NCBI RefSeq assembly: GCF_024298765.1
Contig: NZ_CP101210.1
Direction: 5' to 3' (one strand)
Length of the DNA stretch: 64,000 bases
From: Escherichia coli
GTDB lineage: Bacteria > Pseudomonadota > Gammaproteobacteria > Enterobacterales > Enterobacteriaceae
Below, one piece after another: positions 28,505-50,385 of this stretch (position 1 is its first letter; each line of letters starts with the position of its first letter). The notes beneath the pieces are model-generated. The model was not told the DNA's origin, did no database searches, and was given only the letters and a program-made list of their open reading frames with translations. The position numbers and the translations under genes are program-made.

Positions 28505-30160
28505 ATGACTAATCTTCCCCACTGGTGGCAAAACGGCGTTATCTACCAGATTTATCCAAAGAGTTTTCAGGACACCACGGGTAGCGGCACCGGCGATTTA
28601 CGTGGCGTTATCCAACGCCTGGACTATCTGCATAAACTGGGCGTTGATGCCATCTGGCTAACCCCCTTTTATGTCTCTCCGCAGGTCGATAACGGTTACG
28701 ATGTAGCGAACTATACGGCGATTGATCCCACCTACGGCACGCTGGACGATTTTGACGAACTGGTGACGCAGGCAAAATCGCGCGGGATTCGTATCATTCT
28801 CGATATGGTGTTTAACCATACCTCTACCCAACATGCCTGGTTTCGCGAGGCGCTGAACAAAGAAAGCCCTTACCGCCAGTTTTATATCTGGCGCGATGGC
28901 GAACCAGAAACGCCACCGAACAACTGGCGTTCAAAATTTGGCGGTAGTGCGTGGCGCTGGCATGCGGAAAGCGAACAGTACTATTTGCATCTCTTTGCAC
29001 CAGAACAGGCGGATCTCAACTGGGAGAATCCAGCGGTACGCGCAGAGCTGAAAAAAGTCTGTGAGTTCTGGGCCGATCGTGGGGTCGACGGGTTGCGCCT
29101 GGATGTGGTGAATCTGATCTCCAAAGACCCGCGTTTCCCTGAAGACCTGGATGGCGACGGGCGTCGCTTCTACACCGACGGGCCACGAGCACACGAGTTT
29201 TTGCACGAGATGAACCGCGATGTGTTTACGCCACGCGGGTTAATGACCGTAGGTGAAATGTCCTCCACCAGCCTTGAGCATTGCCAGCGATACGCGGCAC
29301 TGACAGGCAGTGAATTGTCGATGACCTTTAATTTTCATCACCTGAAGGTCGATTATCCCGGTGGTGAAAAATGGACGCTGGCTAAACCTGACTTTGTGGC
29401 GTTGAAAACATTGTTCCGCCACTGGCAACAAGGAATGCACAACGTGGCATGGAATGCCTTGTTCTGGTGTAACCACGATCAGCCGCGCATTGTTTCTCGC
29501 TTTGGTGATGAAGGTGAATACCGCGTGCCTGCGGCAAAAATGCTGGCGATGGTGCTGCATGGCATGCAGGGAACGCCGTATATCTACCAGGGCGAAGAGA
29601 TTGGCATGACCAACCCGCATTTCACGCGCATTACTGACTATCGCGACGTGGAGAGCCTCAATATGTTTGCCGAGCTGCGCAACGATGGTCGTGATGCCGA
29701 CGAGTTATTGGCAATCCTCGCCAGTAAATCCCGTGACAACAGTCGCACACCCATGCAATGGAGCAACGGCGATAATGCCGGGTTTACGGCTGGCGAACCG
29801 TGGATTGGCCTGGGCGATAACTATCAGGAAATCAACGTAGAAGCAGCGCTGGCCGATGAGTCCTCGGTGTTTTACACCTACCAAAAGTTAATCGCACTGC
29901 GTAAGCAAGAAGCCGTCCTGACATGGGGCGATTACCAGGATCTGCTGCCAAACAGCCCTGTATTGTGGTGCTATCGCCGTGAGTGGAAGGGGCAAACCTT
30001 ACTGGTCATTGCCAACCTTAGCCGTGAGACCCAACCCTGGCAGCCAGGGAAAATGCTCGGCAACTGGCAGCTTGTGATGCATAACTACGAAGAAGCCTCA
30101 CCACAACCCTGTGCCATGACTTTACGGCCTTTTGAGGCTGTCTGGTGGTTACAGAAGTAA
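28505..30160 (+). CDS. treC: Trehalose-6-phosphate hydrolase (GH13)
   Basis: MTNLPHWWQNGVIYQIYPKSFQDT...; 551 aa from internal Met; GH13 motifs DAIWLTP, GLRLDVV. Confidence 0.95.
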   Translation: MTNLPHWWQNGVIYQIYPKSFQDTTGSGTGDLRGVIQRLDYLHKLGVDAIWLTPFYVSPQVDNGYDVANYTAIDPTYGTLDDFDELVTQAKSRGIRIILDMVFNHTSTQHAWFREALNKESPYRQFYIWRDGEPETPPNNWRSKFGGSAWRWHAESEQYYLHLFAPEQADLNWENPAVRAELKKVCEFWADRGVDGLRLDVVNLISKDPRFPEDLDGDGRRFYTDGPRAHEFLHEMNRDVFTPRGLMTVGEMSSTSLEHCQRYAALTGSELSMTFNFHHLKVDYPGGEKWTLAKPDFVALKTLFRHWQQGMHNVAWNALFWCNHDQPRIVSRFGDEGEYRVPAAKMLAMVLHGMQGTPYIYQGEEIGMTNPHFTRITDYRDVESLNMFAELRNDGRDADELLAILASKSRDNSRTPMQWSNGDNAGFTAGEPWIGLGDNYQEINVEAALADESSVFYTYQKLIALRKQEAVLTWGDYQDLLPNSPVLWCYRREWKGQTLLVIANLSRETQPWQPGKMLGNWQLVMHNYEEASPQPCAMTLRPFEAVWWLQK

Positions 30161-30295
30161 GTATCCGCTAAGCCCCGGTAATACTGGTCATTCCGGGGTT
30201 TTGCCTTTCAGCATGTTGATTTTATAATCAAAAAATTCATTAAAAAATTTACATAACGCTGTAGCGCCCGTCATCCGTACGCTCTGCTTTTTACT

Positions 30296-30351
30296 TTGAG
30301 CTACATCAAAAAAAGTTCAAACATCCTTGATGCAAAGCACTATATATAGAC
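30296..30351 (+). promoter_or_regulatory. nrdDG promoter: two FNR-type sites and an NrdR-box-like palindrome
   Basis: TTGAGctacATCAA at 30296-30309 and TTGATgcaaAGCAC at 30327-30340, centres 31 bp apart; CACTATATATAG follows. Confidence 0.55.
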
Positions 30352-30544
30352 TTTAAAATGCGTCCCGACCCAATATGTTGTATTAATCGACTATAATTGC
30401 TACTACAACTCCCCACGAAAAAGGTGCGGCGTTGTGGATAAGCGGATGGCGATTGCGGAAAGCGCCGGAAAACGAAACGAAAAAACCGGAAAACACCTTT
30501 CCCAATTTCTGTGGATAACCTGTTCTTAAAAATATGGAGCGATC

Positions 30545-32683
30545 ATGACACCGCATGTGATGAAACGAGACGGCTGCAAAGTGCCGTTTAAATCAGAGCG
30601 CATCAAAGAAGCGATTCTGCGTGCAGCTAAAGCAGCGGAAGTCGATGATGCAGATTATTGCGCCACTGTTGCCGCGGTTGTCAGCGAGCAGATGCAGGGC
30701 CGCAGCCAGGTGGATATCAACGAGATCCAGACCGCCGTTGAAAACCAGCTTATGTCGGGTCCATACAAACAACTGGCTCGTGCTTACATCGAGTACCGTC
30801 ACGATCGCGACATTGAACGTGAAAAACGCGGTCGCCTGAATCAGGAGATCCGTGGTCTGGTTGAGCAGACCAACGCCTCGTTGCTCAACGAAAACGCCAA
30901 CAAAGACAGCAAGGTGATTCCAACCCAGCGCGACCTGCTGGCCGGGATTGTGGCTAAACACTATGCACGCCAGCACCTGCTGCCGCGTGACGTGGTGCAG
31001 GCACATGAACGTGGTGATATTCACTATCACGATCTCGATTACTCACCGTTCTTCCCGATGTTCAACTGCATGTTGATCGACCTGAAAGGCATGCTGACCC
31101 AGGGCTTTAAAATGGGGAACGCCGAGATTGAACCGCCGAAGTCGATCTCTACGGCAACCGCGGTAACTGCGCAGATTATTGCCCAGGTCGCCAGCCATAT
31201 TTATGGCGGCACCACCATTAACCGTATCGATGAAGTGCTGGCACCGTTTGTCACCGCCAGCTACAACAAACATCGCAAGACCGCAGAAGAGTGGAACATC
31301 CCGGACGCCGAAGGCTACGCTAACTCTCGTACCATCAAAGAGTGCTACGATGCCTTCCAGTCGCTGGAGTACGAAGTAAACACCCTGCACACCGCCAACG
31401 GTCAAACGCCGTTTGTAACCTTTGGTTTTGGTCTGGGCACCAGCTGGGAGTCGCGCCTGATTCAGGAATCTATCCTGCGTAACCGTATCGCCGGCCTCGG
31501 TAAAAACCGTAAAACGGCGGTGTTCCCGAAACTGGTGTTTGCGATTCGCGATGGCCTGAACCATAAAAAAGGCGATCCGAACTACGACATCAAACAGCTG
31601 GCGCTGGAGTGCGCAAGCAAGCGCATGTATCCGGATATCCTGAACTACGATCAGGTAGTGAAAGTCACCGGTTCGTTTAAAACCCCGATGGGCTGCCGCA
31701 GCTTCCTCGGCGTGTGGGAAAATGAAAACGGCGAGCAGATCCACGATGGTCGTAACAACCTCGGCGTGATCAGCCTGAACCTGCCGCGTATTGCTCTGGA
31801 AGCAAAAGGCGATGAAGCCACCTTCTGGAAGCTGCTGGATGAACGTCTGGTGCTGGCACGTAAGGCACTGATGACCCGTATCGCTCGTCTCGAAGGCGTG
31901 AAAGCGCGCGTAGCCCCGATCCTCTATATGGAAGGCGCTTGTGGCGTGCGTCTGAATGCTGACGACGACGTTTCTGAAATCTTCAAAAACGGTCGTGCAT
32001 CTATTTCGCTGGGTTACATCGGCATCCACGAAACCATTAACGCGCTGTTCGGCGGCGAGCATGTTTACGACAACGAGCAGCTGCGCGCGAAAGGTATTGC
32101 GATTGTTGAGCGTCTGCGTCAGGCGGTGGATCAGTGGAAAGAAGAAACTGGCTACGGTTTCAGCCTCTACAGTACGCCGAGTGAGAACCTGTGCGACCGC
32201 TTCTGCCGTCTCGATACCGCTGAGTTTGGCGTGGTGCCGGGCGTGACCGATAAAGGTTACTACACCAACAGTTTCCACCTTGATGTGGAGAAAAAGGTGA
32301 ACCCGTATGACAAGATCGACTTTGAAGCGCCTTACCCGCCGCTGGCGAACGGTGGTTTCATTTGCTACGGCGAGTATCCAAACATTCAGCACAACCTGAA
32401 GGCGCTGGAAGATGTCTGGGATTACAGCTATCAGCATGTACCGTATTACGGCACCAATACGCCGATCGATGAGTGCTACGAGTGTGGCTTTACCGGTGAG
32501 TTCGAGTGCACCAGCAAAGGCTTCACTTGTCCGAAATGTGGTAACCATGACGCCTCCCGTGTGTCGGTGACTCGCCGCGTGTGCGGATATTTAGGTAGCC
32601 CGGATGCACGTCCATTTAACGCCGGTAAGCAGGAAGAAGTTAAGCGCCGCGTTAAACATTTGGGGAATGGGCAGATAGGTTAA
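30545..32683 (+). CDS. nrdD: Anaerobic ribonucleoside-triphosphate reductase
   Basis: 712 aa; N-terminal ATP-cone; C-terminal glycyl-radical region with Cys-rich Zn site CYECGFTGEFECTSKGFTCPKCG. Confidence 0.97.
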   Translation: MTPHVMKRDGCKVPFKSERIKEAILRAAKAAEVDDADYCATVAAVVSEQMQGRSQVDINEIQTAVENQLMSGPYKQLARAYIEYRHDRDIEREKRGRLNQEIRGLVEQTNASLLNENANKDSKVIPTQRDLLAGIVAKHYARQHLLPRDVVQAHERGDIHYHDLDYSPFFPMFNCMLIDLKGMLTQGFKMGNAEIEPPKSISTATAVTAQIIAQVASHIYGGTTINRIDEVLAPFVTASYNKHRKTAEEWNIPDAEGYANSRTIKECYDAFQSLEYEVNTLHTANGQTPFVTFGFGLGTSWESRLIQESILRNRIAGLGKNRKTAVFPKLVFAIRDGLNHKKGDPNYDIKQLALECASKRMYPDILNYDQVVKVTGSFKTPMGCRSFLGVWENENGEQIHDGRNNLGVISLNLPRIALEAKGDEATFWKLLDERLVLARKALMTRIARLEGVKARVAPILYMEGACGVRLNADDDVSEIFKNGRASISLGYIGIHETINALFGGEHVYDNEQLRAKGIAIVERLRQAVDQWKEETGYGFSLYSTPSENLCDRFCRLDTAEFGVVPGVTDKGYYTNSFHLDVEKKVNPYDKIDFEAPYPPLANGGFICYGEYPNIQHNLKALEDVWDYSYQHVPYYGTNTPIDECYECGFTGEFECTSKGFTCPKCGNHDASRVSVTRRVCGYLGSPDARPFNAGKQEEVKRRVKHLGNGQIG

Positions 32684-32705
32684 TCTTCACTCTGCGTTAA
32701 GCAAA

Positions 32706-32834
<129 letters not shown>

Positions 32835-32840
32835 GAAATA

Positions 32841-33305
32841 ATGAATTATCATCAGTACTATCCTGTCGACATCGTCAACGGCCCCGGCACTCGCTGCACC
32901 CTGTTTGTCTCCGGGTGTGTTCATGAATGCCCCGGTTGCTATAACAAAAGCACCTGGCGGGTAAATTCCGGTCAGCCATTTACCAAAGCAATGGAAGACC
33001 AGATCATTAACGATCTGAATGACACTCGCATCAAACGCCAGGGTATTTCCCTCTCCGGCGGCGATCCGCTGCATCCGCAAAACGTGCCGGATATTCTGAA
33101 ACTGGTACAACGCATCCGCGCCGAATGTCCGGGTAAAGACATCTGGGTGTGGACAGGCTATAAACTCGACGAACTCAACGCTGCGCAAATGCAGGTTGTT
33201 GATTTGATTAACGTGCTGGTCGACGGCAAATTTGTGCAGGATTTAAAAGACCCTTCCCTGATCTGGCGCGGCAGCAGCAATCAGGTGGTGCATCATTTGC
33301 GATGA
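32841..33305 (+). CDS. nrdG: Anaerobic RNR activating enzyme (radical SAM)
   Basis: 154 aa; Cys-rich radical-SAM cluster motif (CTLFVSGCVHECPGCYN). Confidence 0.93.
   Translation: MNYHQYYPVDIVNGPGTRCTLFVSGCVHECPGCYNKSTWRVNSGQPFTKAMEDQIINDLNDTRIKRQGISLSGGDPLHPQNVPDILKLVQRIRAECPGKDIWVWTGYKLDELNAAQMQVVDLINVLVDGKFVQDLKDPSLIWRGSSNQVVHHLR

Positions 33306-44833: not shown

Positions 44834-50385
<5,552 letters not shown>

Follow-up and report, generated by a model that had tools for sequence, protein, structure and literature searches.

We found that the window, by which we mean the whole stretch of 64,000 nucleotides analyzed here, carries the known nrdDG promoter of E. coli, an activator-dependent sigma-70 promoter which integrates three signals. 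We consider this reading very likely (probability approximately 0.95). It relies on identity with DNA studied by others, on motif scores and on conservation, all of which we computed, and on binding and activity data taken from the literature. Since control of nrdDG by FNR, NrdR and DnaA has already been published, the result has little weight as a discovery.

The source DNA is the E. coli chromosome, and the order of genes in the window is treB-treC-nrdD-nrdG, as in K-12 MG1655. The treC gene (alpha,alpha-phosphotrehalase) ends at 30160 in the list of open reading frames. A segment of 501 bases around the motifs matched 5,425 of 5,426 complete E. coli genomes and was located between treC and nrdD in every matched genome. 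Identity of the 101-bp core promoter was 98% or higher across the 5,425 genomes, with only a handful of exceptions. When the window was aligned with the same locus of K-12, whose promoter is the subject of Boston & Atlung 2003, Torrents et al. 2007, Roca et al. 2008 and Rozman Grinberg et al. 2025, the 411-bp intergenic region was 96% identical, and the sequences of FNR-2, FNR-1, NrdR box 1, NrdR box 2, the -10 hexamer and the DnaA box were the same in both. Three single nucleotide differences were observed in or near the core, none of them within a motif: at 30316 (T in the window, C in K-12), between the FNR sites, at 30367 (G in the window, A in K-12), which is the inferred +1, and at 30408. 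The G at 30367 is the base found in approximately 80% of related species. Farther upstream, the window is devoid of one 9-bp unit and differs from K-12 in the allele of a palindrome. The position between treC and nrdD, the alignment with K-12 and the match to the published probes described below identify this DNA as the E. coli nrdDG promoter. Coordinates of the features are collected in Table 1.

Table 1. Features of the nrdDG locus in window coordinates; positions with a sign are relative to the inferred transcription start.
Feature	Window position	Strand	Remarks
Upstream palindrome TTGAT-N6-ATCAA, perfect, TTGATTTTATAATCAA	30216..30231		about -143.5 from the nrdD start; strain-variable, not FNR-type
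FNR-2 site TTGAGCTACATCAA	30296..30309		centre 30302.5 = -64.5; high-affinity, reported essential for activation
FNR-1 site TTGATGCAAAGCAC	30327..30340		centre 30333.5 = -33.5; weaker, auxiliary
NrdR box 1 GCACTATATATAGACT	30337..30352		-30 to -15; 4-bp overlap with the right half-site of FNR-1
Probable -10 hexamer TAAAAT	30354..30359	+	-13 to -8; inferred from published site positions and sequence
Inferred transcription start (+1)	30367..30367	+	30302.5 + 64.5 = 30333.5 + 33.5 = 30367; G here, A in K-12
NrdR box 2 ACCCAATATGTTGTAT	30368..30383		+2 to +17; 31 bp centre-to-centre from box 1
Perfect DnaA box TTATCCACA	30433..30441	-	nrdD 5'UTR, +67 to +75; conserved and near the ChIP-seq peak
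Double DnaA box TTAAGAACA-gg-TTATCCACA	30510..30529	-	+144 to +163; published
nrdD coding sequence	30545..32683	+	712 aa, anaerobic ribonucleoside-triphosphate reductase; from the list of open reading frames and from RefSeq annotation of E. coli records with the same or nearly the same sequence
nrdG coding sequence	32841..33305	+	154 aa, activating enzyme, second gene of the operon; list of open reading frames, size and order equal to K-12 nrdG

The original prediction proposed two FNR sites in this region, TTGAG-N4-ATCAA and TTGAT-N4-AGCAC. Direct reading of the sequence confirmed both, with centres 31 bp apart. We scored them with the published weight matrix of Ravcheev et al. 2007 (threshold 3.75, maximum 5.20). 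FNR-2 obtained 4.63, the highest score among approximately 64,000 positions of the window. The score of FNR-1 was 3.34 and thus below the threshold, and 64 positions of the window scored at least as high. The original prediction had named a matrix score below threshold as grounds for giving up a site, and taken literally this applies to FNR-1, but not to FNR-2. The assignment of FNR-1 rests on the literature and not on the score, because its binding was reported experimentally; we let the reported EMSA and SAXS data, together with conservation in orthologues, override the sub-threshold value. Had we relied only on the matrix threshold, a site reported as bound would have been discarded.

Tandem FNR sites at this promoter are indeed published. 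PMC10425943, with reference to Boston & Atlung 2003 and Roca 2008, gives -33.5 as the position of site 1 and -64.5 as that of site 2. According to this paper, site 2 is bound more tightly and is both necessary and sufficient for expression, while site 1 is auxiliary; EMSA and mutagenesis of the nrdDG FNR sites are attributed to Roca 2008 (via PMC10425943). In SEC-SAXS experiments two [4Fe-4S]-FNR dimers were present per 54-bp probe, so that both sites were filled (PMC10425943). We aligned this 54-mer with positions 30292-30345, which hold both proposed sites, and the only mismatch was at 30316, between the sites and outside the motifs. Further, a FNR ChIP-seq peak at nrdD was reported over TTGATGTAGCTCAA, which is the reverse complement of FNR-2, with a PatSer score of 15.68, among the highest in the table excerpt from Myers et al. 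2013. Literature data also describe reduced expression of nrdD and nrdG in a fnr mutant.

Both published FNR positions imply the same base, and therefore we place the start of transcription near 30367. The published position of the start comes from secondary citations of Boston & Atlung 2003 and Roca 2008 and not from the primary mapping. A consensus promoter scan missed the TAAAAT hexamer because a matching -35 is lacking, which is to be expected where a promoter depends on an activator. A perfect TATAAT is located further downstream on the plus strand (30392-30397, +26 to +31 of the leader), also with no matching -35. The sequence around it, TTAATCGACTATAAT, is moderately conserved and follows NrdR box 2 immediately.

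The palindrome overlapping the downstream FNR site had been described as similar to a NrdR box. We observed that the 12-mer in question, CACTATATATAG (30338-30349, 3-bp overlap with the FNR site), is an imperfect palindrome, and that perfect symmetry is limited to the inner 10 bp, CTATATATAG (30340-30349). This inner part is the core of a true NrdR box, which ranked first by matrix. The element was recognized, but it is one member of a pair; box 2 had been missed, as had the DnaA boxes. The two NrdR boxes are centred at 30344.5 and 30375.5, directly upstream of nrdDG. For scoring we built a matrix from the nrdAB and nrdHIEF boxes only and left out the boxes of nrdDG in order to avoid circularity. 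With this matrix the position 30337 was the best in the window (14.1 bits), and 30368 was the fourth (13.5 bits). Ranks 2 and 3 belonged to matches at 12997-13012 (14.05 bits) and 13075-13090 (13.7 bits). These are 78 bp apart and lie inside an AT-rich open reading frame of 407 aa on the minus strand (12480-13703). We rejected them as a NrdR pair on account of the wrong spacing and the location within an AT-rich reading frame; they are probably an effect of base composition.

The boxes agree with published data on NrdR. A 57-bp nrdDG fragment with two 16-bp boxes and a 15-bp linker was bound with a Kd near 160 nM, and binding required ATP or ADP plus dATP (PMC12176259). This 57-mer aligned with window positions 30332-30388 with one mismatch, at 30367, outside the motifs. 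According to a study in Salmonella, the FNR site and box 1 have a few nucleotides in common, and mutations of the boxes relieve the repression of nrdDG.

Apart from the perfect DnaA box at 30433, we detected a second perfect TTATCCACA 9-mer at 30510-30518, also on the minus strand. A double DnaA box upstream of nrdD, tTTAAGAACAggTTATCCACAg, is given in Table 1 of PMC11317965, and we found it at 30509-30530 on the minus strand of the window. The same paper reports a DnaA ChIP-seq peak upstream of nrdD with 62-fold enrichment; it maps to approximately 30466. A third perfect copy of the 9-mer is present in the window at 21650-21658 (minus strand), at the 3' end of an open reading frame of 311 aa (20820-21755) which is followed by one of 153 aa. 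We take these two frames to be pyrB and pyrI, from their size and order only. This isolated 9-mer is probably due to chance.

We compared 80 nrdD loci of Enterobacterales, including those of 52 species of Enterobacteriaceae. In the 52 species the column-by-column footprint was sharp at FNR-2, FNR-1, box 1, the -10 hexamer and box 2, and the flanks were variable. The TAAAAT hexamer was at least 90% conserved save for one base. The DnaA boxes were also at least 90% conserved, while the rest of the 178-nt leader was otherwise unconserved. All 52 species had an above-threshold site at the FNR-2 position, which precedes the centre of box 1 by 41-42 bp. At the FNR-1 position there was a site in 45 species, in 42 of them above the threshold, and its usual form across Enterobacteriaceae was TTGATGCAAATCAC, with a score of 3.89. 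E. coli has G at 30337 (AGCAC arm), whereas 42 of the 52 related species have T (ATCAC), with scores of 3.34 and 3.89, respectively; the AGCAC arm is a weaker, derived variant of FNR-1. The pair of NrdR boxes was present in all 80 loci with a spacing of 31-33 bp, mostly 31 bp, and it was accompanied by at least one FNR site in nearly all of them.

Upstream of FNR-2 we observed two further conserved blocks, AAATTTACA and TAGCGCCCGTCATCCGTA (30246-30254 and 30262-30279, about -121 to -88). Their conservation in Enterobacteriaceae ranges from 70 to 100%, and we found no known site that matches them. In other families a CTGTAC(A) motif recurs approximately 30 bp upstream of the FNR site. A scan of the intergenic region and the 178-nt leader with Rfam returned only STnc410, at chance level (E = 1, 14.9 bits versus a gathering score of 50). 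We rejected this RNA element, as it did not recur in the loci of Salmonella, Citrobacter, Enterobacter and Klebsiella. Sub-threshold Rfam matches to naRNA4 (CssrE) were seen on both strands of the nrdD-nrdG spacer of K-12 (about 32690-32835 of the window); we read them as REP-type repeats.

Taken together, these data fit the following model of nrdDG control. Under anoxia [4Fe-4S]-FNR dimers would occupy FNR-2, which is strong and reported as required, and FNR-1, which is weak and auxiliary. Since 31 bp corresponds to about three helical turns, both sites should be on the same face of DNA. The two dimers together would recruit RNA polymerase to the TAAAAT hexamer, with the start near 30367. NrdR with ATP plus dATP, bound to both of its boxes, would cover the core promoter and the right half of FNR-1, and for this reason it is expected to repress when dNTPs are plentiful. 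From this overlap it seems that NrdR may both block RNA polymerase and compete with FNR at site 1. DnaA would bind its boxes in the 178-nt 5'UTR. The four FNR and NrdR centres at 30302.5, 30333.5, 30344.5 and 30375.5 (spacings of 31, 11 and 31 bp) are likely to lie roughly on one face of the DNA.

One may argue that these motifs are chance matches to consensus sequences in AT-rich intergenic DNA, with no regulatory role. Single FNR sites were in fact not enriched in the window (44 matches to TTGAT-N4-ATCAA with at most two mismatches, 34 expected), and FNR-1 is below the threshold. The arrangement, however, was never reproduced by dinucleotide shuffling: a FNR pair at exactly 31 bp (scores of 4.62 or more for one site and 3.33 or more for the other) appeared in 0 of 300 shuffles, and so did a NrdR pair at 30-33 bp. 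The window also matches probes which were bound experimentally, and occupancy by ChIP-seq is published. The 52 species strictly retain the position and sequence of the motifs but diverge in the flanks, and published binding and mutagenesis data contradict a chance origin, to which we give next to no credence.

The original prediction also included an upstream palindrome, TTGAT-N6-ATCAA, regarded as stronger than the two FNR sites and of uncertain meaning. It is present and its spacing is non-canonical, but it is not of FNR type and it is not conserved even within E. coli. The spacer has 6 bp instead of 4 bp, and the best N4 alignment scored 3.32, against the threshold of 3.75; with the polymorphism in E. 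coli, these were the reasons for which we rejected it as a FNR site. At the same position K-12 and O157 have TTGATTTTTCAACCAG, in which the right arm is destroyed (ACCAG), and E. albertii has an altered form, TTGATTTTCCAATCAG. The exact 77-bp context of the palindrome was found in 75 of 5,426 genomes, and the spread of matches lets us estimate that the allele itself is present in roughly a fifth of them. An RNA hairpin formed by the palindrome (stem of 4-5 bp, AU loop of 8 nt) would probably be too weak to form a structure. The number of copies of the adjacent 9-bp unit TGTTGTTTT (window 30205-30215) differs between E. coli strains. The window has one copy fewer than K-12, O157 and the majority of strains, and two fewer than strain NCCP 13983. 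Nowhere else is the intergenic region as polymorphic as in this segment, which is located just downstream of a terminator-like hairpin of treC. We flag it as a strain difference upstream of the promoter.

Two ways in which the palindrome could matter were considered. It may be a functional site, such as a third, non-canonical site of the FNR/CRP family or a site for a dimeric regulator or a nucleoid protein, which modulates nrdDG from about -143. Its arms form a perfect 5+5 palindrome, and related AT-rich dyads (GTTGAATAATTAATCAG, GTCGATTTTTTAATCGA, GATGCATTTTTAAGCAT) occupy the aligned position in many Enterobacteriaceae, with some paired changes (T-A to C-G at 30217/30230). Its G-N13-C pattern with an AT-rich core may resemble that of Fis sites. 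The motif is also over-represented, with three perfect copies in the window and 0.13 expected from shuffles, but the other two (2916-2931 and 46980-46995) are inside long open reading frames, have GC-rich centres and share no context with the copy at 30216. Among 44 distinct orthologous sequences complementarity was 49% at the centre and 15-46% at shifted centres, which is barely above the highest control. In addition, the N6 spacer makes the distance between the TTGA cores 2 bp too long for a dimer of FNR or CRP, and the loss of the right arm in K-12 and O157 and its alteration in E. albertii argue against a function; we find such a site unlikely. The other possibility is that the palindrome allele, together with the loss of one TGTTGTTTT unit, has created a new sigma-70 promoter with FNR-independent read-through into nrdDG. 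There is a 10/12 promoter match, TTGCCT-16-TATAAT (30201-30228, plus strand), whose perfect TATAAT falls within the palindrome. Only the allele with both the palindrome and the 9-bp deletion (75 of 5,426 genomes) has this match, and K-12 is without it because of the 9-bp insertion and TTTCAACC. One such match in 501 bp is, however, no more than in shuffles (mean 1.3), and we rejected it as a promoter. It directly follows the terminator-like hairpin of treC in AT-rich DNA, and the transcript would need to pass the FNR, NrdR and DnaA sites. We regard this promoter as very unlikely.

Most likely, the palindrome is a lineage-specific sequence variant with no supported function. It is improbable that in a minority lineage the loss of the 9-bp repeat and the TATAAT allele provide an additional FNR-independent promoter, or strengthen a partly conserved dyad for some regulator approximately 143 bp upstream of the nrdDG start. 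Either of these would mean strain-specific expression of the anaerobic reductase.

The nrdDG promoter can be compared with several known systems. Like canonical class II FNR promoters, it has a TTGAT-N4-ATCAA dyad, is activated by [4Fe-4S]-FNR under anaerobic conditions and has a -35 that is weak or missing. It differs from them in having tandem sites at -64.5 and -33.5, of which the distal one is essential; among the 23 FNR-activated promoters whose start is known, 19 have their site at -41.5 +/- 4. The geometry of FNR activation at nrdDG was called 'a remaining mystery' by the authors of PMC10425943. The NrdR boxes resemble the box pairs of E. coli nrdHIEF and nrdAB, which are also 16-bp palindromes with a central AT and a 15-bp linker (31 bp centre-to-centre), overlap the core promoter and have a similar affinity for NrdR (Kd 113-160 nM, PMC12176259).

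Other Enterobacterales (Yersinia, Serratia, Pectobacterium, Edwardsiella, Hafnia and others) have nrdDG promoters in which the two NrdR boxes are 31-33 bp apart, with a FNR site upstream and DnaA boxes downstream. These families differ from Enterobacteriaceae in having a single FNR site and no FNR-1. In most of their loci the distance between this site and the centre of box 1 is 28-29, 40-41 or 51 bp. Such steps of approximately 11 bp, or one helical turn, suggest that the helical phase between activator and operator is kept when the site moves. In Yersinia, Serratia, Pectobacterium, Edwardsiella and others, DnaA boxes of the form TTATCCACA-N3/4-CATCCACA, in opposite orientation, abut NrdR box 2. 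In summary, the tandem FNR layout is specific to Enterobacteriaceae, whereas the combination of a single FNR site, a pair of NrdR boxes and DnaA boxes occurs throughout Enterobacterales.
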